Shown: one piece after another, positions 2,848 through 36,869 of the stretch | How positions within the stretch are numbered: the first letter of the stretch is position 1 | Layout of the letters: every line of letters begins with the position of its first letter | Assembly: GCA_026414955.1 (NCBI GenBank) | Contig: JAOAIA010000002.1 | Location: 1 to 40,503 of the forward strand | Direction: 5' to 3' | DNA: 40,503 nt | Source of the DNA: Candidatus Bipolaricaulota bacterium | Lineage (GTDB): Bacteria; Bipolaricaulota; Bipolaricaulia; RBG-16-55-9; DRXL01 | Notes under the pieces: generated by a model | What the model was told of the DNA's origin: nothing | Database searches by the model: none | The model's input: the letters and a program-made list of their open reading frames with translations, nothing else | Made by a program: the position numbers and the translations under genes

Positions 2848-3408
2848 ATGCCATACAACCCGGACAAACATCACCGCCGCAGCATCCGGCTGAAGGGATA
2901 TGATTATGCGCAGGCAGGCGCGTATTTCGTTACGGTCTGTACGCGCGATCGGGTATACTGGTTCGGCGAAGTGATAGACAATCAGATGCACCTGAATCAA
3001 GCTGGGCAGATCGTCCTGACCATGTGGGAGGAGTTGCCAGAACGGTTTCCTGAGATCGCTATAGATGCCCATGTGATCATGCCCAACCATGTGCACGGCA
3101 TCGTGTGGATTAAACCGGTAGGGGCGCAATTCATTGCGCCCTATACCTATAGGGGCGCGATGAATCGCGCCCCTACGACGTTGGGGGAAATCGTTCGGGC
3201 ATTCAAGGCGGTGACAACGCGCATCATACGGCAGACGATCTTTCCAGAATTCGCGTGGCAACGCAACTATTACGAACACATCATCCGCAGCGAGGAATCG
3301 CTAAATCGGATTCGTCAGTACATCCTTGATAACCCACAGCGATGGGCTTACGATAGAGAGAACCCGGCGGCGACAGCGCCAGAACCGGAGAATGCATGGG
3401 CATCATGA
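2848..3408 (+). CDS. IS200-like / REP-associated tyrosine transposase (RAYT, COG1943-type)
   Basis: HUH motif MPNHVHGIVWI and Tyr motif WQRNYYEHIIR. REP hairpins lie directly upstream and inside the gene. Confidence 0.85.
   Translation: MPYNPDKHHRRSIRLKGYDYAQAGAYFVTVCTRDRVYWFGEVIDNQMHLNQAGQIVLTMWEELPERFPEIAIDAHVIMPNHVHGIVWIKPVGAQFIAPYTYRGAMNRAPTTLGEIVRAFKAVTTRIIRQTIFPEFAWQRNYYEHIIRSEESLNRIRQYILDNPQRWAYDRENPAATAPEPENAWAS
3118..3176. repeat. Two REP hairpins inside the RAYT coding sequence (encoding VGAQFIAP...GAMNRAPT)
   Basis: GGGCGCAAT tc ATTGCGCCC at 3122-3141 and TAGGGGCGCGAT ga ATCGCGCCCCTA at 3150-3175. Confidence 0.85.
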
Positions 3409-12030: not shown

Positions 12031-12084
12031 CTCTCACCTCTGCTCCCCTCTCCCTCGGAGGGGAGAGGGGCTGGAGGTGAGGGT
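12031..12084. repeat. GC-rich nested palindrome (CTCACCTC..CCCCTCTCC..GGAGAGGGG..GAGGTGAG) containing the mrp stop codon
   Basis: Inner stem 12045-12053 / 12062-12070; outer stem 12033-12040 / 12074-12081. Encodes the Mrp tail TLTSSPSPLRGRGEQR. Confidence 0.8.
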
Positions 12085-13107
12085 GAAATATTTGATAAGT
12101 TTATCGGCGATCTTGGTGAACTCTTGCGCCGCCGGTGACGACGGATCAGCTATCAGAATGGGCACACCGGCATCACCGCCCTCGCGCAGTTTCGGATCTA
12201 ATGGGATCTGCCCCAAGAATGGGATATTTTGTCGTTGGGCTTCGGCTGCGCCCCCGCCCTGCCCAAAGATATACTCTCTGTGTCCGCACTTGGGACAGAT
12301 ATAATACGCCATGTTCTCGATGATCCCAATAATGGGCACATCAAGCTTCTGGAACGCCCCGATGCCTCTTCGCACGTCGGAGAGCGCAACTTCCTGGGGG
12401 GTCGTCACGGCAATCGTCCCGGAGAGTGTCACGTCTTGAGCCAGGCCAAGGTGGGCGTCCCCAGTCCCGGGGGGCATGTCCATAATCAGATAATCTAACT
12501 CCGGCCACGCTGTGCTCTCTAATAACTCATTGATCGCTTTGGAGATCATCGGGCCGCGCCAGATGAGCGGGTCTCCTCCCCCGACTAATAAGCCGATAGA
12601 GATCGCGTGCACGCCGTACTTGAAGATCGGGACAAGCTTGCCGGCTGTGACCGTCGGCGGTTCCCTCAATCCCATAAGAGTGGGGATATTCGGCCCGTGT
12701 ACGTCAGCATCGAAAAGCCCGACGCGCGCCCCTTGCTGGGCTAACGCCACGGCGAGATTCACACTGACGGTGCTCTTGCCCACCCCGCCCTTGCCGCTGA
12801 AGATCGCAAGAATATGGGCGATCTGCGGGAAGTGCAGCTTCTGCATGGGACGAGGAGCTCTGGGCTGCGGGCGTGGGGTCTGGGCAAATTCGACATGGAC
12901 TGTCTCGATCTCCGGGATGGCTTTGAGGGCCTGCTCAGCCCACGACTTCAATTGGGATTTTGACGCATACGCCGGCAGAAACTTCAACCGCACTCGCACG
13001 GATCTTTCGTCAACCGCGAGGTCGTCGACGAGATCGCTCAGCGATCGGTGGGCGTGGGGAATCTCGATCTGGCGCAGGGCTTCGCGGACGCGCTCGCTCA
13101 GAGTCAT
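12034..13107 (-). CDS. mrp: Fe-S cluster carrier ATPase Mrp/ApbC/NBP35 family with N-terminal DUF59-like domain
   Basis: Walker A GKGGVGKST and the CPKCGH motif. Start trimmed to the ATG at 13107 (MTLSERVREAL), which overlaps the Rrf2 stop by 1 nt (TAATG). Confidence 0.92.
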   Translation of the reverse strand: MTLSERVREALRQIEIPHAHRSLSDLVDDLAVDERSVRVRLKFLPAYASKSQLKSWAEQALKAIPEIETVHVEFAQTPRPQPRAPRPMQKLHFPQIAHILAIFSGKGGVGKSTVSVNLAVALAQQGARVGLFDADVHGPNIPTLMGLREPPTVTAGKLVPIFKYGVHAISIGLLVGGGDPLIWRGPMISKAINELLESTAWPELDYLIMDMPPGTGDAHLGLAQDVTLSGTIAVTTPQEVALSDVRRGIGAFQKLDVPIIGIIENMAYYICPKCGHREYIFGQGGGAAEAQRQNIPFLGQIPLDPKLREGGDAGVPILIADPSSPAAQEFTKIADKLIKYFTLTSSPSPLRGRGEQR

Positions 13108-13565
13108 TATGAAACCTTCACTTTCCCACTCACCCTGTCTCCCTCTCCGGAGAGGGGCCGGTGGGTGAGGTCCATGACATCGCTCAAGGTGAGCGATCCC
13201 AGATATTCTTCGAGCTTTTGGTTCACGATCTCCCAGACAGGGCTGGTGGGACAGCCGTCCTCGATGGCACATTTCAAGCTGGGATCCAAGCACGTGACGA
13301 GCGCGATAGGGCCGTCGAGGGCGTGCACGATCTCGCGCAAGGAGATAGCAGACGGGCGCTTCTTCAGCAGATACCCGCCGCCGCGCCCGTGGGTCGCTTC
13401 GACTAAGCCGTGCTCCCGCAGCTCTTGCATGATCTTCTCCAAAAACGGTTCGGGGATCTTGTGCTCTGCGGAGAGCTGGCCAATAGAGACCGGCTCTTGA
13501 TTATAGCGCTGGGCGAGCGTGCAGAGCGCCCGCAGCCCGTAATCGCTCTTCCGTGTCACTTTCAT
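13107..13565 (-). CDS. Rrf2/IscR-like transcriptional regulator with three cluster-ligand cysteines
   Basis: MKVTRKSDYGLRAL, HTH region, C-x6-C-x5-C (VTCLDPSLKCAIEDGC). The C-terminal ~20 aa are encoded by a palindromic repeat. Confidence 0.88.
   Translation of the reverse strand: MKVTRKSDYGLRALCTLAQRYNQEPVSIGQLSAEHKIPEPFLEKIMQELREHGLVEATHGRGGGYLLKKRPSAISLREIVHALDGPIALVTCLDPSLKCAIEDGCPTSPVWEIVNQKLEEYLGSLTLSDVMDLTHRPLSGEGDRVSGKVKVS
13125..13170. repeat. GC-rich nested palindrome (CTCACCC..CCTCTCCGGAGAGG..GGGTGAG) forming the Rrf2 C-terminal tail
   Basis: Perfect inner palindrome at 13142-13155; outer arms at 13129-13135 / 13163-13169. Confidence 0.8.
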
Positions 13566-13578
13566 AGGAGACGCTCCA

Positions 13579-13603
13579 AAATCCGAGTGAAATACTCTGA
13601 TTT
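13579..13603. promoter_or_regulatory. 25-bp dyad AAATCCGAGTGAAATACTCTGATTT, candidate Rrf2/IscR operator
   Basis: 18 of 25 positions are self-complementary. It sits just downstream of the -10 box and spans the expected TSS. Confidence 0.4.
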
Positions 13604-13604
13604 C

Positions 13605-13633
13605 ATTGTAAAAAAGACCGGGACAAAAGTCAA
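13605..13633 (-). promoter_or_regulatory. Promoter TTGACT-17-TACAAT for the Rrf2-mrp-DUF59-Cys-rich operon
   Basis: On the plus strand, agtcaa at 13628-13633 and attgta at 13605-13610. Confidence 0.6.
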
Positions 13634-13699
13634 CCAGACTCCGTCTGGACTGTTCGCCCCTCCTCGCTGGCCAAGATGAAGGGCAAGCGAAGCGTGCGC
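13634..13699. repeat. Two-hairpin element family, copy C (hairpin 2 left arm degraded)
   Basis: CCAGACtccGTCTGGACTGTTC...CTGGCCAAGATGAAGGGCAAGCGAAGC aligns with the copies at 15626, 34191 and 35209 (reverse complement). Confidence 0.75.
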
Positions 13700-13705
13700 A
13701 GCGTG

Positions 13706-14893
13706 TTATTCCGTAGGCTGGTTCTGCCCCTTCGCCGCCAATGCTTTCTCGATCAAGCGTTCGAAGATTGCCCAGACGCGCGAATAGCCCGTGGCCGGGT
13801 CGTGCTCGCTGATATTCTGTCTGGCGTTGGCCCGCGCGATCTCTTTGGCCTTGCCGATGAGCGCCGCGGCTTCGACACTCTGGCCGGCAGCTTCCAACGC
13901 CATCCCCTTTTGCATGAGTTTTGTGTACTCGCTCCCTGGCCCATGACAGGCTTCACACGTTACGTCCATGGTCTTGAGGGTCTCTTCGTCTATGAACGGG
14001 TGATCCTTGAATTCTTCGATGTTCTTGCTCGTCATAAATTCCGGACGGAACCAGACCTCGACGTGACGCTTGCTCGATTCGGGAATATAGACATCACTGA
14101 TTTCGGGGTGGCCATGGCACGCTACGCACGCTGCCGAGCCGACAAACGGCAACGGCTCCCCGGAGATCGAGACGTCGGTGCGGGCTTCGATCACTTTGGC
14201 TTGAGGGTTTTCCGTGCGAAACGGCGAGGTGCGCTCCCCAAAGCCCTCGACTAAGAACGTATCTTTATGCAGTTGCCACCACGCGAGGATGCGCGCCATC
14301 GCTTCTTCGCGCTTCTCTTTTGGCGCGTTGAAGACGAACCCAAAATCGTTCGCGGTCATCCACCGAATGCGCTCGATGCCCCGCTGGCGCTCGGCCCACC
14401 GCTCCGAACGCAGTTTCTCAATAGACTCCTCAAAAATCTGAGCGAAGCGCGTGCGCATCTCATGGTGGGCGAGTTCGGACCTCAAAGCTAACGAGTTCCC
14501 CCCGTGACATGCCGTGCACCCGACCTGGTCGAAGGGGAGTTGTTCGATCACTTTGACATTCTTGTGTATCTCGAGCAAATCTCTCAGAGGCTCTTGAGCG
14601 AATCCCGGCACGCCGACGTTGACATGACAGGTCATGCACAGATCGGCGCTGCGGCCTACTTCTGTGACGATCTTCTTAATCTGGAGATTCGCCTCGGCGC
14701 TCACGGCAATCGCGATCTGGTCGAAGAGCGAGAGCGAACCCTTTTGGGCTTGGGCTTTGTCCGTGAGCACTTTTGTCAGATATGCTCGTTGGTACTTCTT
14801 CCATTCTTGGTTGTAGTTGGTGAAGACGACAGTAAAGACCAGAAGCAACACCAGGACGGCCGACACAGCGAACCATTTGCGCACGTTCTCCAT
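13706..14893 (-). CDS. Membrane-anchored tetraheme c-type cytochrome
   Basis: Four CxxCH motifs (CMTCH, CTACH, CVACH, CEACH). N-terminal TM helix after the trimmed start at 14893 (MENVRKWFAVSAVLVLLL). Confidence 0.85.
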   Translation of the reverse strand: MENVRKWFAVSAVLVLLLVFTVVFTNYNQEWKKYQRAYLTKVLTDKAQAQKGSLSLFDQIAIAVSAEANLQIKKIVTEVGRSADLCMTCHVNVGVPGFAQEPLRDLLEIHKNVKVIEQLPFDQVGCTACHGGNSLALRSELAHHEMRTRFAQIFEESIEKLRSERWAERQRGIERIRWMTANDFGFVFNAPKEKREEAMARILAWWQLHKDTFLVEGFGERTSPFRTENPQAKVIEARTDVSISGEPLPFVGSAACVACHGHPEISDVYIPESSKRHVEVWFRPEFMTSKNIEEFKDHPFIDEETLKTMDVTCEACHGPGSEYTKLMQKGMALEAAGQSVEAAALIGKAKEIARANARQNISEHDPATGYSRVWAIFERLIEKALAAKGQNQPTE

Positions 14894-14900
14894 AGTTCTA

Positions 14901-16124
14901 TTATGATAGCAAATTTGGGGTGAGTGCGCGAGCCCGTTGGCGCGCCCACCGATCCGCTTCGAGAATCTCTTCAAGAGTGGGATCGGGCACGCCCGTGTGC
15001 TCAGCGAGCACGCGCTCTAAGCCGCGCGCGATCCCTAGAAACGAGATCTCCCTGTTTAAGAATCTTTGCACCAAGACTTCATCGGCGGCGTTGGCTACCG
15101 CCGGAAAGGTCCCCCCACGACGCCCAGCTTCGCACACCAGCCAGAACGCAGGATACCGCTCCCGCCCCACCGGCGCAAACTCTAATCTCTGCTTCACCAG
15201 ATCCAATCGCTCGCCTGGAGATGGCACGCGCTCCGGATACGTCAGAGCATACTGAATGGGCCGCTTCATATCCGTCGTGCTCAGATGGGCCAAGATGCTT
15301 CCATCTCTCACTTCGACCAGCCCGTGCACGATGCTCTGCGGGTGAATGAGCACAGAGATCTTTTCATAGGGCAGCTCGAAGAGCCAATGGGCTTCAATGA
15401 CTTCAAACGCTTTGTTGACGAGCGTGGCTGAATCTATAGTAATGCGCTTGCCCATCTGCCAGGTGGGGTGCTGCAGGGCCTCTTCGACAGTGATCTGAGC
15501 AAACGAGTCGAGCGGGCGTGTCCGAAATGGCCCGCCAGAAGCCGTCACGATCACTCGCTCGATCTCATCCCGACGCAGAGAGTGCAGGAGCTGGAAGAGC
15601 GCGCTGTGCTCGCTGTCTATGGGGACCAGGCTTCGCCTGGACCGTACGCCTTGGCCAGCCTCCGACTGGCCAAGATGAACGTCAAGCGAAGCTTGTACCA
15701 AATGCCCCCCAATGACTAACGACTCCTTGTTCGCCAGCGCGACAGTTTTCTTGGCTTTAAGGGCTTCGAGCGTCGGGATCAAGCCCGCCGCACCGACGAG
15801 CGCGTTGACGACAAGATCGGCTTCAGGATAGGTCGCTACCGCTTGCAGGCCCTCACCCCCGACGACGATCTCCCCGGTCCAAAAAGTCTTGAGCAATTGT
15901 CTGAGCCGACTGAGGTCCTTGGCGCGCTCCAGAGCAAGAAGCTTGGGCTGGAAGCGCTGGGCTTGCGCTGCCAAGAGTTCCAAGTTCTTGCCCGCCGCTA
16001 GTGCTACGACCGAAAAAGTATGCCCGGCCCGATTGAGGACTTCGATGACCGCAAGCGTCTGCGACCCAATCGAGCCGGTCGATCCCAAGATCGCGATGCG
16101 CTTACTTATGACACTCGGTGGCAT
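14901..16124 (-). CDS. dxr: 1-deoxy-D-xylulose 5-phosphate reductoisomerase carrying an in-frame repeat copy
   Basis: ILGSTGSIGSQTL, LANKESLV and PIDSEHSA. Confidence 0.95.
   Translation of the reverse strand: MPPSVISKRIAILGSTGSIGSQTLAVIEVLNRAGHTFSVVALAAGKNLELLAAQAQRFQPKLLALERAKDLSRLRQLLKTFWTGEIVVGGEGLQAVATYPEADLVVNALVGAAGLIPTLEALKAKKTVALANKESLVIGGHLVQASLDVHLGQSEAGQGVRSRRSLVPIDSEHSALFQLLHSLRRDEIERVIVTASGGPFRTRPLDSFAQITVEEALQHPTWQMGKRITIDSATLVNKAFEVIEAHWLFELPYEKISVLIHPQSIVHGLVEVRDGSILAHLSTTDMKRPIQYALTYPERVPSPGERLDLVKQRLEFAPVGRERYPAFWLVCEAGRRGGTFPAVANAADEVLVQRFLNREISFLGIARGLERVLAEHTGVPDPTLEEILEADRWARQRARALTPNLLS
15626..15699. repeat. Two-hairpin element family, copy D, in frame inside dxr
   Basis: 57 of 74 positions are identical, ungapped, to copy A (34191-34264). 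Both stems are preserved by paired substitutions. Encodes QASLDVHLGQSEAGQGVRSRRSL. Confidence 0.8.
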
Positions 16125-17220
16125 CGAGCTCCGGTTTGGCTTGGTACGAACACGAGTCTATCCTCTCACCATAGGCGTCCTGGAGCCGTGCCAGATCGGC
16201 GCGGTCGTCCCAGACCTCCGCGCCCTCGGTCTCTAGACCGGCGTACCGATGATAGAGATCAATCTCAGCTTGTCCGCACGGGGTGCTCGTCTTGCCCACA
16301 GACGCGGGGCCGGAGTGCACACGCACTCTGCCGCCCGCGGGCACCACGCACCCTTGGGGGAAGACGAAGACTTGGGCGATCCGGTCGCGCTCGACGGTGC
16401 TGCTCAGGATCTGCCAGCCGGATACGTCAACTTCCCTACGTCCCTGGTTGACCAGGGTGACGACTTCATCGTTCCCGCGATAGCGGATCGAGTCGATCAC
16501 CACGCGCGGGGGCACGGAGATGTCGAAATGGAACGAGAGAGTGACCTCCGGGCCGCTGGGACGATCCAAGGGGCCGGGCCACTCACTCTCCTCTTCGTCC
16601 GTAATCCCCCAGCCGCCCCAGGGGAACGCGTAGACATACCCAGCGGTCAAGCTCAATTCAAGGTTGATCGGCCTGCCCCGCGCTCGTTCGCCAAGAGGGA
16701 TAAAGGCAGAGGCTCTAAGATAGGGCTGCGCCACCCAGTAGCCACGGGCGAACTCCCCTGACACTTCAAGGAGTTCGGTGAGGGCTTGATCAAATGTTGT
16801 GATGCCCCGGCGAGATCGCTCGAGATTGAGAAACGCTCCGCCGATCCCCGCGAGAGAGCCAACGGCGACCTGCCCCAGCGGTATGCTCTGCGAGAACTCC
16901 GCAACAAGACCCCCATAGAGAAACCCAAACACTGTCTCGGACTGCTCAGAATCCGACTCAGGAAGCGCGAATGCGAACTGCCCCCCAAACCCAAACCGCA
17001 GAGGGAAATCGGGCACTCCCAACAGGGTATGTATGCCAAACGAGAGAAAATGCTCGCTGACGCCGGGATAGTTATACGTGTGCAATAAAGAATTCAAGTC
17101 CGATAGAGGCAGAGAGAGCCAACCGACGGACACGCCGAACGTTCCGGTCGCTTGCGCATAGGCCCCATAGGGGAGGACAACGATAACCAAGAGAGTGAAG
17201 GCGATCCGAGAGGGCTTCAT
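16102..17220 (-). CDS. Secreted protein: N-terminal beta-rich (barrel-like) domain plus C-terminal lamin-tail-like (LTD) domain
   Basis: Signal peptide ...PYGAYAQA. The C-terminal segment VVIDSIRYRGNDEVVTLVNQGRREVDVSGWQI resembles LTD. It overlaps the dxr start by 23 nt. Confidence 0.65.
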   Translation of the reverse strand: MKPSRIAFTLLVIVVLPYGAYAQATGTFGVSVGWLSLPLSDLNSLLHTYNYPGVSEHFLSFGIHTLLGVPDFPLRFGFGGQFAFALPESDSEQSETVFGFLYGGLVAEFSQSIPLGQVAVGSLAGIGGAFLNLERSRRGITTFDQALTELLEVSGEFARGYWVAQPYLRASAFIPLGERARGRPINLELSLTAGYVYAFPWGGWGITDEEESEWPGPLDRPSGPEVTLSFHFDISVPPRVVIDSIRYRGNDEVVTLVNQGRREVDVSGWQILSSTVERDRIAQVFVFPQGCVVPAGGRVRVHSGPASVGKTSTPCGQAEIDLYHRYAGLETEGAEVWDDRADLARLQDAYGERIDSCSYQAKPELDATECHK

Positions 17221-32882: not shown

Positions 32883-34064
32883 ATGCTCCGCAGCCTGCGC
32901 GAGCTTGAGGTCACCAAGAGACGGGTCTTAGTTCGAGTTGACTATAACGTCCCGCTGCAGAACGGACAGGTCACTGACGACACGCGCCTTCGTGAAAGCC
33001 TCCCCACACTAGAATATCTGCTCCAACACCGCGCCAAGATTATCTTGATCTCGCACTTGGGCCGCCCCAACGGAAAAGTTGTCCCTGAACTTCGTCTCGA
33101 CCCCGTAGCCCAGCAGTTGGAGAACCTACTCCGGCGCCCGGTCACCAAGCTCGATAGCTGTATTGGGCCGGAAGTCTCTCGCGCCATCTCCCAGATGAAA
33201 CCGGGAGAGATAGTCTTATTAGAGAACGTGCGCTTCTATCCCCAAGAAGAAGCTAACGACGAAAACTTTGCGCGAGAGCTCGCTCAGCTCGCCGATTGCT
33301 ACGTGAACGACGCGTTCGGCACCGCGCATCGTGCCCATGCGAGCACCTATGGGGTCGCGAGATTCTTGCCGTCAGCAGCGGGATTGCTCTTAGAGAGAGA
33401 AGTCACCATGCTCAGCAAAGCCACGAAAGACCCCAAACGCCCGTTTCTGACGATCGTCGGTGGGGCCAAGCTGAAAGACAAGATTGGGGTGCTCACAGAC
33501 TTGATCGGGAAGGTGGACGCATTTCTCATCGGCGGGGGCGTCGCGTTTACGCTCCTCAAAGCCCAGGGGGCGCGCGTGGGAAGCTCCCTCGTAGACGAAA
33601 AGATGCTCGACGAAGCCCGACAGTGTCTGGAGAAAGCTCGCGAACACAAGACGGAAATAATCCTGCCACACGACGTGCACGCCGTGCGAGAATCAACAGC
33701 AGGGGGAGAGCAAGCTGTCGTCCCTGCTGCTGCAATTCCCGACGGATGGCAGGGATGGGACATCGGCCCCAAGACTATACAGATCTTCCAAGAGAGGGTC
33801 GAACGGGCGGAGACAATTGTCTGGGCTGGCCCATTGGGGAAATTTGAACAGCCGCCGTTTGACACGGGGACACGAGAGGTCGCCCAAGCGATTGCGCGAT
33901 CTGGGGCGTTCGCTATCATCGGTGGGGGGGACACGGCTGCCGCCTTACACCAGAGTGATCTCAGCCGAGCAAAAAACATTCACTTTTCGACCGGAGGAGG
34001 AGCGACGTTAGAGTTTTTAGGGGGGCGCAAGCTCCTCCCCATCGAAATATTGCGTGCAGATTGA
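32883..34064 (+). CDS. pgk: Phosphoglycerate kinase
   Basis: KRVLVRVDYNVPL, SHLGRP and GGGDTAAA. Alternative GTG start at 32877. Confidence 0.97.
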   Translation: MLRSLRELEVTKRRVLVRVDYNVPLQNGQVTDDTRLRESLPTLEYLLQHRAKIILISHLGRPNGKVVPELRLDPVAQQLENLLRRPVTKLDSCIGPEVSRAISQMKPGEIVLLENVRFYPQEEANDENFARELAQLADCYVNDAFGTAHRAHASTYGVARFLPSAAGLLLEREVTMLSKATKDPKRPFLTIVGGAKLKDKIGVLTDLIGKVDAFLIGGGVAFTLLKAQGARVGSSLVDEKMLDEARQCLEKAREHKTEIILPHDVHAVRESTAGGEQAVVPAAAIPDGWQGWDIGPKTIQIFQERVERAETIVWAGPLGKFEQPPFDTGTREVAQAIARSGAFAIIGGGDTAAALHQSDLSRAKNIHFSTGGGATLEFLGGRKLLPIEILRAD

Positions 34065-34077
34065 GATTTTTATGGTC

Positions 34078-34106
34078 TTGTCACGGGAGAGAGAACGTGC
34101 TATAAT
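34078..34106 (+). promoter_or_regulatory. Promoter TTGTCA-17-TATAAT for tRNA-Gly
   Basis: TTGTCA at 34078-34083 and TATAAT at 34101-34106. The tRNA starts at 34116. Confidence 0.7.
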
Positions 34107-34115
34107 ACACTCCGT

Positions 34116-34190
34116 GCGGGCGTAGCTCAGTGGTAGAGTACTGGCTTCCCAAGCCAGGTGTCGCGGGTTCGAATCCCGTCGCCCGCTCCA
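34116..34190 (+). tRNA. tRNA-Gly (anticodon CCC), CCA encoded
   Basis: Cloverleaf folded by hand: acceptor GCGGGCG/CGCCCGC, anticodon stem CTGGC/GCCAG with loop TTCCCAA, and T-loop TTCGAAT. Confidence 0.95.
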
Positions 34191-34264
34191 CCAGACTTCG
34201 TCTGGACTGTTCACCTTTGCCAGCCGGAGGCTGGCAAAGATAGACGTCAAGTGAAGCTTGCAGG
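34191..34264. repeat. Two-hairpin element family, copy A, directly abutting the tRNA-Gly CCA end
   Basis: CCAGAC ttc GTCTGG, then ACTGTTCACC, then TTTGCCAGCC gga GGCTGGCAAA, then a tail that contains the lipid kinase stop codon. Confidence 0.8.
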
Positions 34265-35152
34265 CGAAGCCTGGATCACTTCTAATGCCTTTGGCAGCAG
34301 CTCGACCCGCAGTCTCCCGGGGGGAAATTCTATAGGTTCCCCATCGAGATGGCCCAACAGCGGCCTCTCTGAGGCGATCTCGACCCACGGCGTGTGCCGG
34401 AGCTGTACCTCCGGCAACTCTAGATGCCTCCCCTTGCGCGCCTTGGGGATCTGCAAGATCCTTCTTAACGGCGGCATGTCCGAGATCAGATAGACATCAA
34501 AAAGCCCATCGTCGATCTCGGCGTGTGGGGCGAGCTGAAAATCACCGGCAAGGTAACGCCCGTTACATACGCCCAGCATCATCAGCGTGCCGGAGTGCTC
34601 CCACTCCGGGGCGCATACAGAGAGCGCATCGCTCTGGAAGAAGAGGGCTTCGCGCACGACAGCATAGAGATAGATCCAGTGGGCAAGCCACGGCCAGCGC
34701 CAACTGCGAAAGACCCGCCAGGCAACTGCTCCATCCAGCCCCACTCCCAACCCATTGACGAAGTAGTGTTCGCCGATGCGCCCGACGTCCACGCGCTTCG
34801 TGCGTCCCGCTTCGAGAATGGGGATGGCTGGTAAGGGGTCTTTAGGGGGGATGCCGAGCATCTTGACGAAGTCGTTGCCCGTCCCCGCAGGGATGATCCC
34901 CAGCTTCGCCTCCGTGCCCATGAGTCCGGTGGCCACTTCGTGAATCGTGCCGTCGCCGCCCACGGCCACCACGACAGAAAAATCTTCGGCAGCGCGGCGG
35001 GCGACCTCAATAGCTGCTCCAGGGGCTTCAGTGAAGACATGACGAAATGGGAGTCGCGAGCTTTTGAGAGCGCGCTCGATGCTTGGCCACAGACGACGGC
35101 ACCGCCCACGGCCCGCCAAGAGATTCACGATGACGAAGCATTCGTCGGTCAT
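34247..35152 (-). CDS. Diacylglycerol/lipid kinase family protein (YegS/BmrU-like)
   Basis: VVAVGGDGTIHEV and IIPAGTGNDF. Start trimmed to the ATG at 35152 (MTDECFVIVN). Confidence 0.85.
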   Translation of the reverse strand: MTDECFVIVNLLAGRGRCRRLWPSIERALKSSRLPFRHVFTEAPGAAIEVARRAAEDFSVVVAVGGDGTIHEVATGLMGTEAKLGIIPAGTGNDFVKMLGIPPKDPLPAIPILEAGRTKRVDVGRIGEHYFVNGLGVGLDGAVAWRVFRSWRWPWLAHWIYLYAVVREALFFQSDALSVCAPEWEHSGTLMMLGVCNGRYLAGDFQLAPHAEIDDGLFDVYLISDMPPLRRILQIPKARKGRHLELPEVQLRHTPWVEIASERPLLGHLDGEPIEFPPGRLRVELLPKALEVIQASPASFT

Positions 35153-35176
35153 AAAGATAGTATAGCCTGAAATCGG

Positions 35177-35205
35177 TTGACAAGCCAAGTCCGTCGTGTT
35201 AAAAT
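35177..35205 (+). promoter_or_regulatory. Promoter TTGACA-17-TAAAAT for tRNA-Leu, with an ~88-nt structured leader
   Basis: TTGACA at 35177-35182 and TAAAAT at 35200-35205. Confidence 0.6.
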
Positions 35206-35208
35206 CTC

Positions 35209-35300
35209 TTTGCCAGCCAATGGCTGGCAAAGGCGCAGCCCACGCGCAGTGTGTTCGTGCCGCCGCGGGCGGCACGGTGAACAGTCCAGACGAAGTCTGG
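35209..35300. repeat. Two-hairpin element family, copy B (inverted relative to copy A, with a 43-nt insert carrying a third hairpin), abutting tRNA-Leu +1
   Basis: The reverse complement matches copy A in the first 25 nt exactly and in the next 25 nt except for the loop. The insert hairpin is GTGCCGCC gcg GGCGGCAC at 35257-35275. Confidence 0.8.
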
Positions 35301-35384
35301 CCGAGGTGGCGGAACGGCAGACGCGCTAGCTTCAGGAGCTAGTGGGTATTAACACCCGTGAGGGTTCAAATCCCTCCCTCGGCA
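35300..35384 (+). tRNA. tRNA-Leu (anticodon CAG), long variable arm, CCA not encoded
   Basis: Acceptor GCCGAGG/CCTCGGC, anticodon stem CTAGC/GCTAG with loop TTCAGGA, T-loop TTCAAAT. It closely resembles the E. coli tRNA-Leu(CAG) layout. Confidence 0.93.
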
Positions 35385-35400
35385 CACAAGACAGTTGCAA

Positions 35401-35450
35401 GTTAAAAGTTCCAAGTTCTAAACTTTTAACGGCGAACTTGGGGCTTTTTT
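35401..35450 (+). terminator. Alternative hairpins; the second (CCAAGTTC...GAACTTGG) is followed by T6, as in an intrinsic terminator
   Basis: GTTAAAAGTT/AACTTTTAAC at 35401-35410 / 35421-35430. CCAAGTTC/GAACTTGG at 35411-35418 / 35434-35441. T-run at 35445-35450. Confidence 0.55.
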
Positions 35451-35453
35451 CGT

Positions 35454-36869
35454 ATGAACCTGAACACAAGACCTTGGCACGAACTGCTCACTCTTATCGA
35501 GCAGGGCGAGATCCATCCCCGCGAGGTCATCGCTGATCTCTATCGCGCTATCGCCGAGAGAGAAGACCAAATTCGCGCGTATATCTCGCTCGCCCCGCAA
35601 GAGAAGCTGCTCCAAGAGTGCGAACGCCTTCGTGAAAAACCCCTGCGAGGGCTGCCCATCGCCGTCAAAGATAACATCTCAACAAGAGATTTGAAGACGA
35701 CCTGCGCGTCGCGTTTTTTAGAGAATTTCCAGCCGATCTTCGACGCGACAGTCATCCAAAGACTCAAAGACGCGGGCGCGCAAATCTTGGGGAAGACGAA
35801 CTTAGATGAGTTCGCCATGGGGTCTTCTACCGAGAACAGCGCGTTCTATCCCACGCGCAACCCCCATGATGTAGAGCGCGTCCCCGGCGGATCTTCTGGA
35901 GGATCAGCAGCGGCCGTTGCCGCGCATGAAGCGAGCTGCGCGTTAGGCTCCGACACCGGCGGCTCGATCCGCCAGCCTGCCGCGTTCTGCGGGATCGTGG
36001 GACTCAAGCCCACCTATGGACTGGTCTCACGCTATGGGTTAGTCGCGTTCGCCAGCTCACTAGACCAGATCGGCCCGATGACCAAGGACGTGCGCGACTG
36101 CGCTCTCCTCTTGAATTATATCGCTGGGCACGATCCCAACGACTCGACAAGCATTGGGCGCTCCTGCGCCGACTACACCCAAGAGCTGGGACGAGAGATC
36201 CAAGGCTTTCGCGTAGGGGTGCCGAAAGAGTATATTGCTGGTCTTTCAGGGCAAGCCAAGGCGTGCGTGGACTCTTGGCTGAAGACTTTTGAGGAGCTAG
36301 GTGCACAGGTCATCGAGCTGTCGTTGCCCCACACCGAGTATGCGATCCCGACATATTATTTGATCTCGTCGTCGGAGGCGAGCGCGAATCTCGCACGTTT
36401 CGACGGCGTGCGGTACACGAAGCGAGCGAGCGCCGCTTCGGTCGAAGCGATGTTCGCCGAGAGCCGTGACAAGGGCTTCGGCCCCGAAGTCAAGCGCAGG
36501 ATTATGATCGGGACGTATGCGCTGAGCGCGGGGTACTACGAAGCGTGGTACGGCAAGGCCCAGAGGGTTCGGGCGCTCATCCGCCAGGACTTCGCGAACG
36601 CTTTTCAGGCTGTAGATATTCTGATCTCGCCAACGTCGCCGACGCCGGCGTTCAAGGTGGGCGAAAGAGTGAGCGATCCCTTGGCGATGTATCTCTCTGA
36701 TATCTTCACGGTGCCGGCGAGCTTGGCGGGCCTTCCGGCGATCTCGCTCCCCGGCGGCCAAGTAGAGGGCTTGCCCTTTGGGATGCAGCTCATCGCTGAT
36801 AAGTTCCAAGAAGCCAAGCTCTTGCGCGCGGCGTATGCCTTCGAGCAAGCGACACAAAGCTCATTCTAA
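35454..36869 (+). CDS. gatA: Glutamyl-tRNA(Gln)/aspartyl-tRNA(Asn) amidotransferase subunit A
   Basis: Amidase signature [12 protein letters not shown] and KDNI. Confidence 0.95.

Follow-up and report, generated by a model that had tools for sequence, protein, structure and literature searches.

A repeat unit in frame within dxr of a Bipolaricaulota bacterium, and the dispersed family of mosaic palindromes from which it probably came

Rickettsia palindromic elements (RPE; Ogata et al. 2000) are dispersed palindromes that, according to PMC10969869 and PMC3733652, often lie in frame within housekeeping genes, which stay intact, and add a short peptide at tolerant surface sites of the protein. 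Repetitive extragenic palindromic (REP) sequences, with their mosaic and doublet forms (bacterial interspersed mosaic elements, BIMEs; REP doublets forming hairpins, REPINs) and the associated tyrosine transposases (RAYTs), represent a second class: short, G+C-rich, imperfect palindromes without target-site duplication, some of which lie in genes and supply stop codons (PMC3337134, PMC3733652). Bacterial MITEs (miniature transposable elements with inverted repeats; e.g., Correia/NEMIS, ERIC, RUP, Nezha and Chunjie) are likewise small and multi-copy with inverted ends, and occasionally form in-frame fusions with host genes (PMC10969869). Here we analyse 40,503 nt of a Candidatus Bipolaricaulota bacterium (assembly GCA_026414955.1, contig JAOAIA010000002.1, positions 1 to 40,503; hereafter the window), in which a palindromic unit lies in frame inside dxr, the gene for 1-deoxy-D-xylulose-5-phosphate reductoisomerase. 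This unit, designated copy D, belongs to a dispersed, mosaic family of palindromic repeats of the Bipolaricaulota (Acetothermia), a copy of which probably landed in dxr and has since been rewritten. The family is a new one, but of a known kind, with the mosaic architecture of REPs and BIMEs and the in-frame habit of RPEs. Searches of the open-access literature turned up no account of repeats like these in Acetothermia or Bipolaricaulota.

The gene and the unit within it are arranged as follows.

14901-16124, minus strand: dxr, 407 amino acids, intact
15626-15695, plus strand: copy D, a complete 70-nt unit with a type-2 end (covariance model, 92.1 bits, E 4e-20)
15626-15640: hairpin H1 of copy D
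15641-15649: linker of copy D
15650-15674: hairpin H2 of copy D
15683-15695: hairpin H3 of copy D

The Dxr of the window carries the Pfam domains PF02670, PF08436 and PF13288, matches Dxr structures in the PDB (E 3e-96), and is 52-87% identical to its relatives, the search placing it next to Ca. Acetithermum autotrophicum and bacterium HR07. Copy D runs antisense to dxr and in frame, occupying codons 144-166 (Q144-L166) and the first base of codon 167. The original prediction, made from the sequence of the window, placed an element-encoded peptide right before the PIDSEH motif and estimated that the loop was about a dozen residues longer than that of E. coli. Both points were borne out: the peptide is QASLDVHLGQSEAGQGVRSRRSL (residues 144-166), directly followed by VPIDSEH, and the loop exceeds that of relatives with the ancestral loop, as well as that of the solved Dxr 6mh4, by 12 residues. 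Copy D takes the place of the end of helix 133-150 and of the turn before the strand that bears D170, S171, E172 and H173. In an AlphaFold2 (AF2) model of the protein (mean pLDDT 93.2, pTM 0.91), Q144-H150 are predicted to extend helix 133-150 and residues 161-165 to form a short helix. The sole weak block comprises residues 151-160 (pLDDT 54), which are the residues encoded by H2. Predicted folding of the unit gives -45.1 kcal/mol and a z score of -6.5 on the dxr-sense (minus) strand, and a z score of -6.1 on the plus strand. In a separate solved Dxr of 472 residues (PDB 8s65), some 50 extra residues occupy the position of window residues 148-165, so that the loop tolerates large inserts outside the Bipolaricaulota too.

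For the family, 27 canonical copies, taken from the window and other genomes, were made into a covariance model (R1). The canonical unit is 70 nt long and consists of H1 (CCAGRC-TTC-GYCTGG), a linker (ACYGTWCRCC), H2 (TTCGCCRGCC-NNN-GGCYGGCGAA, with a stem of about 11 bp), a spacer (GATGAACGT) and H3 (CAAGC-GAA-GCTTG). H3 is similar to the reverse complement of H1; the ends of the unit are therefore inverted repeats, and both strands score in R1 (92 vs 52 bits). The modules are exchanged within the family, in which unit sizes are 66-86 nt. The end module has two alleles, CCAGAC-TTC-GTCTGG followed by ACTGTWC (type 1) and CCAGGC-TTC-GCCTGG followed by ACCGTWC (type 2). The central hairpin can be TTCGCCRGCC..GGCYGGCGAA, GTGCCGCC..GGCGGCAC or TTGCCGCC..GGCGGCAA, and the right-hand module CAAGCGAAGCTTG, CACGCGCAGCGTG (replacing H3) or an inverted end module. 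The last arrangement yields doublets of H1 and inverted H1 that are 68-69 nt long and have unlike end alleles, while an extra inverted H1 after H3 produces a form of 84-86 nt.

A single scan of 185,579 species-representative genomes with CCAGRCTYCGYCTGGACYGTWC matched at least 112 loci. Among the matches listed, nearly all were Bipolaricaulota or Acetothermia bins and a few were labelled Fraserbacteria or 'Thermotogae'; the one Arthrobacter match is probably due to chance. R1 gave 251 hits, both strands counted, in 606 kb of family loci, and 143 end modules were tabulated with their flanks. The scans of other genomes thus revealed a dispersed, multi-copy family. Viral contigs had no match to it. 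At the gathering thresholds of Rfam 15 the only matches in the window were two tRNAs, and 13500-15800 contained nothing at E <= 1.

The hairpins are kept throughout the family. In the 27 canonical copies, 95% of stem cells are paired, compared with 92% in shuffles. Changes on both sides of a stem affect six pairs and 23 cells, many of them in H2, vs 6.1 cells in shuffles, none of 500 shuffles being as high, and when the partner column is slid, pairing falls to 19-38%. Watson-Crick pairs make up 97% of the stem pairs in 110 independent copies, and G-T (21) is not commoner than A-C (23) among the mismatches; a signature of one-strand RNA is absent. The palindrome is clearly maintained, and there is no sign of selection on the RNA of one particular strand.

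Besides copy D the window contains copies A, B and C, two of which touch tRNA genes.

34116-34190, plus strand: tRNA-Gly(CCC), its 3' CCA followed directly by copy A
34191-34274, plus strand: copy A, a 70-nt unit with a type-1 end (34191-34260) and an inverted H1 (34261-34274), 92.2 bits
35208-35300, minus strand: copy B, composite (model match to 35241-35300, 39.5 bits)
35300-35385, plus strand: tRNA-Leu(CAG)
13634-13696, plus strand: copy C, a unit without the 5' arm of H2, 48.4 bits

All four copies had been proposed by the original prediction, and direct reading, repeat finding and the covariance model recovered them where it had placed them; a filter-free scan of the window with the covariance model gave no fifth. 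Copy A, of the 84-86-nt form (to 34274), begins at the base after tRNA-Gly. On the minus strand its part at 34247-34274 forms the end of a YegS/DAGK-like gene (34247-35152, minus strand), encoding the final 8 residues (QASPASFT) and providing the stop codon, TGA. Copy B amounts to the modules of two units: read on the minus strand, H1, linker, a GTGCCGCC..GGCGGCAC hairpin and a CACACTGCGCGTG module (35241-35300, i.e. H1-H2b-H3b) are followed by a second hairpin, H2a (CTTTGCCAGCCAATGGCTGGCAAAG, 35208-35232). It abuts the 5' end of tRNA-Leu, its last base being the first base of the tRNA. Copy C lies between a cytochrome-c-like gene and an Rrf2 gene, and its remaining H2 arm is CTGGCCAAG; repeat finding grouped it with copy D (family D2), at 90% identity over 30 nt.

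Copies A and D are identical at 57 of 74 ungapped positions, exactly as first reported and far above chance: dinucleotide shuffles gave a mean of 19.1 (sd 3.8, maximum 33; z about 10), and the best unrelated 74-mer of the window matched D at 36 of 74. The two copies differ by double changes in both stems (CCAGAC/GTCTGG vs CCAGGC/GCCTGG, and TTTGCCAG/CTGGCAAA vs TTGGCCAG/CTGGCCAA), which had been read as compensatory. Both sets of changes are present, but that in H1 corresponds to a family-wide switch of alleles. At the H1 dimorphism, 98 copies have A-T, 55 have G-C and 3 have a mismatch. The dimorphism goes together with position 18, outside the hairpin, where T accompanies A-T in 97 copies and C accompanies G-C in 45, with 14 discordant. 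Because the linked site is a third one and outside the stem, the H1 change looks like a subfamily or conversion difference rather than two independent mutations in dxr. In H2, copy D has a GG..CC variant (arms TTGGCC/GGCCAA) that occurs only there among the classified H2 hairpins and that agrees with the one H2 arm kept by copy C, at a distance of 2 kb.

The history of the dxr site was followed by comparing the loop DNA of 15 genomes. An empty site is found in L113 (Dxr 81% identical), which reads GGACACTTGATC-AAAAAACTCTTAGCGAACGGATCAGGCCGGGTGA-TCCCCATAGAC (GATC, 34 nt, TCCCCATAGAC), and encodes KKLLANGSGRV, a peptide that resembles the loop of distant outgroups. In the window, the 70-nt unit stands in place of the middle 34 nt of this sequence. 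Its right junction, GTCTGG/TCCCC, is common to L070, L071, L107, L115 and L118, and recurs with a single-base change in L074, L116 and L121. The left side varies: L074 has the 86-nt form, L107 an added H3b module, L121 a deleted H2 tip, and L071 only H1 and a short H2. Only a degenerate H1 is left in L114, where the loop is shorter than the ancestral one, and in L118 H1 is accompanied by hairpins of other families. In L070, L115 and L116, whole units in sense orientation are nested next to or within what is left of the old antisense unit, which explains the Dxr peptides read from the other strand (QTSSGLFAFAS...). Other lineages have unrelated inserts in the Dxr loop; in L117, L119, L120 and L122 these are unrelated palindromic families of the types GGCCCTCACCCC..GGGGTGAGGGCC and CCCCTCTCCC..GGGAGAGGGG. 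Alignment of Dxr orthologues of relatives displays an insert that is present, absent or remodelled, and its centre in the window protein is the block modelled at pLDDT 54. The loop in dxr is a hotspot.

The most probable history begins in an ancestor of the clade to which the window belongs, with a unit landing antisense in the loop that joins the NADPH-binding domain, at its last helix, to the strand of the catalytic DSEH residues. Here, 34 nt were swapped for 70 nt, the net gain of 36 nt keeping the reading frame. The unit is free of stops in the dxr frame and occupies a surface turn where two domains meet, so that the enzyme tolerates 23 element-encoded residues. The site has since been rewritten repeatedly by trimming, extension, overwriting by nested or inverted units, and switches of module alleles, most likely through recombination or gene conversion with other copies, or through repeated insertion next to a retained H1. 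Such rewriting would keep the dxr copy near the family consensus and its hairpins intact.

Evidence for renewal comes from rates of change. Third codon positions of dxr differ at 35-46% between the window and its relatives. Among the dxr-borne units, the three in the same orientation are only 10-13% apart; counting the nested sense-oriented units as well gives 9-19%. The distance to the family consensus is 4.5-15%. Since the centre of the insert is modelled with low confidence, constraint on the protein is an unlikely cause of this slow divergence; the copies would then either be renewed, by conversion or replacement, or be constrained in nucleotide sequence. Renewal is favoured by the allele switch of copy D (type 2 at three linked sites, vs type 1 in L074, L107 and L121), by the match of its rare H2 variant to the remaining arm of copy C, by the nested and inverted units at dxr, and by unit types that change at fixed tRNA spacers (see below). 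The slow divergence of the dxr units thus points to turnover or gene conversion rather than to a proven RNA function.

Copies in protein-coding genes are not confined to dxr. Stop-free frames reaching at least 60 codons on both sides were found for 30 of 97 composite blocks, and about a fifth or more of the sampled copies are in frame within real genes; these are biased estimates, having been obtained from loci that were picked for carrying the element. A first Pfam batch confirmed real genes in 10 cases out of 10 (BacA/UppP, PurL, MutL, aconitase, TpiA, LipB, AsnB, HypF, a penicillin-binding protein (PBP) transpeptidase and a metallophosphoesterase). In seven of these (BacA, aconitase, TpiA, LipB, HypF, PBP and metallophosphoesterase) a single Pfam match runs across the insert, and in PurL, MutL and AsnB domains lie on either side of it. 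The second batch confirmed five of eight (ABC permease, subtilase, GltB-like, HdrA-like and a thiamine pyrophosphate (TPP) enzyme). Single domain matches that span inserts include LplA-B_cat, Sua5, PBP transpeptidase and Metallophos, and in total at least 15 confirmed protein-coding genes besides dxr have an in-frame unit. The same element peptides (PDFVWTV..., QTSSGL..., QASLDVHL..., KLRLTFIF...) recur in unrelated enzymes. In-gene copies have no better model scores than intergenic ones. Canonical units have 4.1 of 6 frames open, vs 2.8 in shuffles, an excess that is not significant (P of at least 4, 0.27), indicating that translatability is mostly a by-product of G+C content.

Two further observations concern individual genes. 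The inter-domain linker of MutL is a second hotspot, with different unit combinations in L025, L023 and L066. The PurL gene of L024 contains two separate units.

Units are also in contact with tRNA genes, often exactly to the base. In the family loci, a module comes to within 3 nt of 49 of 89 tRNAs, meeting the 3' end of 30 and the 5' end of 19, the fraction again being biased by the choice of loci. A stricter count left 28 tRNAs that have a unit at the 3' end. In 12 of them the encoded CCA is immediately followed by the unit, in 14 the CCA of the unit is also that of the tRNA, and in 2 there is an offset of -1. In spacers between tRNAs, the whole spacer can be exactly one unit, and in the orthologous tRNA-Asp/tRNA-Phe spacer the type of unit differs by genome. 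In the window, strong sigma-70-like promoter matches (11 of 12 positions, extended TG) lie at 34078-34106, upstream of tRNA-Gly, and at 35177-35205, upstream of copy B and tRNA-Leu. From these predicted promoters, copy A would be the trailer of pre-tRNA-Gly and copy B a leader of about 90 nt of pre-tRNA-Leu. No intrinsic terminator is predicted in 34000-35500, and copies A to D have no T run.

The hallmarks of known mobilising systems were sought in the family. Target-site duplications are no more frequent than in the control: among 82 units, duplications are absent from 69, measure 2 nt in 9 and measure 3 nt in 4, compared with 72, 7.5 and 1.6 for shuffled flanks (13 with 2-3 nt vs about 10 expected). 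The flanks contain no conserved motif, and AT-rich targets are absent. In approximately 720 kb of flanks, all-against-all BLAST of 1127 open reading frames (ORFs) returned only orthologous housekeeping clusters and no recurrent transposase-like ORF, and no insertion sequence with matching ends turned up. In the 27-copy alignment GTAG is absent from both ends of the unit. Most canonical copies have CGTC before H3, but several of the 27 carry G at position 55 and the type-2 allele lacks the CGTC in H1, so that this tetranucleotide does not form a fixed tag. By the tests that define them, both a classical MITE and a RAYT-linked GTAG REP were rejected as identities for the family: target-site duplications stay at the control level, the GTAG tag is lacking, and the fetched flanks yielded neither a recurrent transposase nor a RAYT homologue near the copies.

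The window does contain one candidate enzyme.

2848-3408: RAYT-like gene for a Y1 transposase (Y1_Tnp, PF01797)

This gene is flanked and interrupted by another family, GTAG-tagged hairpins of the form GTAGGGGCG...CGCCCCTAC. Two of them lie in frame inside the ORF (3111-3176) and encode VGAQFIAPYTYRGAMNRAP right after the HUH motif HVHGIV, and others are found upstream (2685-2718 and 2761-2825). A phmmer search detected no homologue of the RAYT-like protein in the other fetched loci. As a partner of the dxr element the gene was rejected, having its own GTAG hairpins and no homologue near the other copies.

The original prediction of a mobile or selected structured element that tolerates translation is supported by the dispersed family, the kept hairpins, the in-frame copies and the turnover at the dxr site. 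We infer that the family spreads at the DNA level in the manner of REPs and BIMEs, the process acting on the hairpins, and that the element peptide is probably a passenger and not a functional addition to Dxr. Several points weigh against this reading. As 70 nt is not a multiple of three, the event in dxr needs a simultaneous deletion of 34 nt and leaves no clean transposition footprint. No mobilising enzyme was found in the approximately 720 kb of flanks, and viral contigs had no match to the family. In a rough neighbor-joining (NJ) tree of Dxr with the loop masked, carriers fall into at least two groups interleaved with empty-site lineages; a single ancestral insertion is therefore not established, and the tree is too poorly resolved to tell one origin from recurrence or from an exchange of alleles. 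Purifying selection on nucleotide sequence or structure could equally account for the slow divergence of the dxr units. Finally, the in-gene and tRNA-adjacent fractions carry the bias of loci selected for the element.

Selection might alternatively have retained copy D as an mRNA structure in dxr, causing a translational pause at the boundary of the NADPH-binding and catalytic domains or serving as an RNase or stability element. The strong fold of the dxr-sense strand would suit such a role, as would a rate of evolution some 2-4 times slower than that of third codon positions, H2 arms that vary between orthologues but remain complementary, and the location of other in-gene copies at domain boundaries (MutL, PurL, AsnB and the TPP enzyme). 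However, G-U is not in excess over A-C in the stems, in-gene copies score no higher than intergenic ones, and the site can have a unit in either orientation, H1 alone or unrelated repeats, with close relatives faring well without any insert; we regard this explanation as unlikely. It is very unlikely that the peptide itself is adaptive, forming a new surface loop for interaction or regulation to which the likeness to a DNA repeat is secondary. Although the insert is kept in many species of the clade and its two ends are modelled as helix (Q144-H150 continuing the preceding one, 161-165 a short one), its length, sequence and reading strand vary in close relatives (QASLDVHL..., QTSSGLFAFAS..., or only VQSKRSL), identical peptides occur in unrelated enzymes, and the central part has low model confidence.

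A classical MITE, derived by deletion from an insertion sequence and mobilised by a DDE transposase that recognises terminal inverted repeats (CCAGRCTTCGYCTGG ends), would explain the size of 66-86 nt, the high copy number and the inverted repeats formed by H1 and H3 (or inverted H1). Yet the control-level target-site duplications, a G+C-rich family without AT-rich targets, flanks in which no parent insertion sequence with the same ends was found, and the mosaic swapping of modules make this origin highly improbable. Chance, convergence or an assembly artefact can practically be dismissed. Repeats often break metagenome assemblies and several copies do lie at contig ends, but the dxr insert is present in independent assemblies from NCBI, JGI, ENA and Logan, and both the model E value (4e-20) and the ungapped identity (z about 10) are far from random. 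Some weight, though small, might be given to a further reading in which the family is more than selfish, the unit being a structured module maintained by the host across the phylum. Its primary role would be at tRNAs, as the exact 3' trailer, sometimes including the CCA, and as the 5' leader of pre-tRNAs, with the consensus held by nucleotide selection or dedicated recombination and the in-gene copies, that at the Dxr domain boundary among them, being by-products or secondary pause or processing sites.

Of the described systems, RPEs are the closest in habit, being likewise dispersed palindromic repeats that lie in frame in unrelated, intact housekeeping genes. However, RPEs are about 100-150 bp long and belong to an AT-rich, obligate intracellular alphaproteobacterium, whereas the Bipolaricaulota family is G+C-rich, measures 66-86 nt and has a free-living host. 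It also differs in being built of exchangeable hairpin modules and in filling tRNA spacers exactly. The family is RPE-like as a functional class only: no membership in RPE-1 to RPE-10 is claimed, as phylum, length and base composition differ, and sequence homology is not expected. With REPs, BIMEs and REPINs it shares imperfect palindromes (of the 20-40 nt class), two end alleles inverted around a spacer, and mosaic clusters; the two H1 alleles, mostly combined in one doublet, resemble the Y and Z REPs of BIMEs. Unlike REP/RAYT systems it has no conserved GTAG and, in the fetched loci, no RAYT gene flanked by its hairpins, and the share of copies within genes is far higher than is usual for REPs. 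The units resemble MITEs in their small size, high copy number, lack of coding function, inverted ends and stable predicted hairpin, but target-site duplications, AT preference and, in the flanks, a related insertion sequence were not found, and internal hairpins are exchanged.

Other features of the window bear on dxr and on repeats in general. A Lamin Tail Domain gene (16102-17220) separates ftsH from dxr in the window; in those relatives for which this junction was fetched, dxr follows ftsH directly. A nested palindrome at 12034-12100 (CCCTCTCACCTC...CCCCTCTCCCTCGGAGGGGAGAGGGG...GGAGGTGAGGG) encodes the C-terminal tail TLTSSPSPLRGRGEQR and the stop of a Mrp/ParA-like gene. It is of the same kind as the filler of the Dxr loop in L117 and L119.

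In the annotation of Bipolaricaulota bins, units of this family give rise to loops that vary, unusual C-terminal tails and breaks between contigs. In-frame palindromic insertions, best known from Rickettsia and from scattered REPs, are thus pervasive in a deep-branching, free-living, G+C-rich phylum that is known mainly from metagenomes. The Dxr loop represents a natural experiment, in which several repeat families have many times rewritten a tolerant site of an essential enzyme. That units meet the ends of tRNAs exactly bears on the mechanism of insertion or on a role in pre-tRNA processing. This base-exact contact, the machinery that spreads or homogenises the units, and the way in which a single enzyme loop has been rewritten again and again are the points of greatest interest for the biology of the family.

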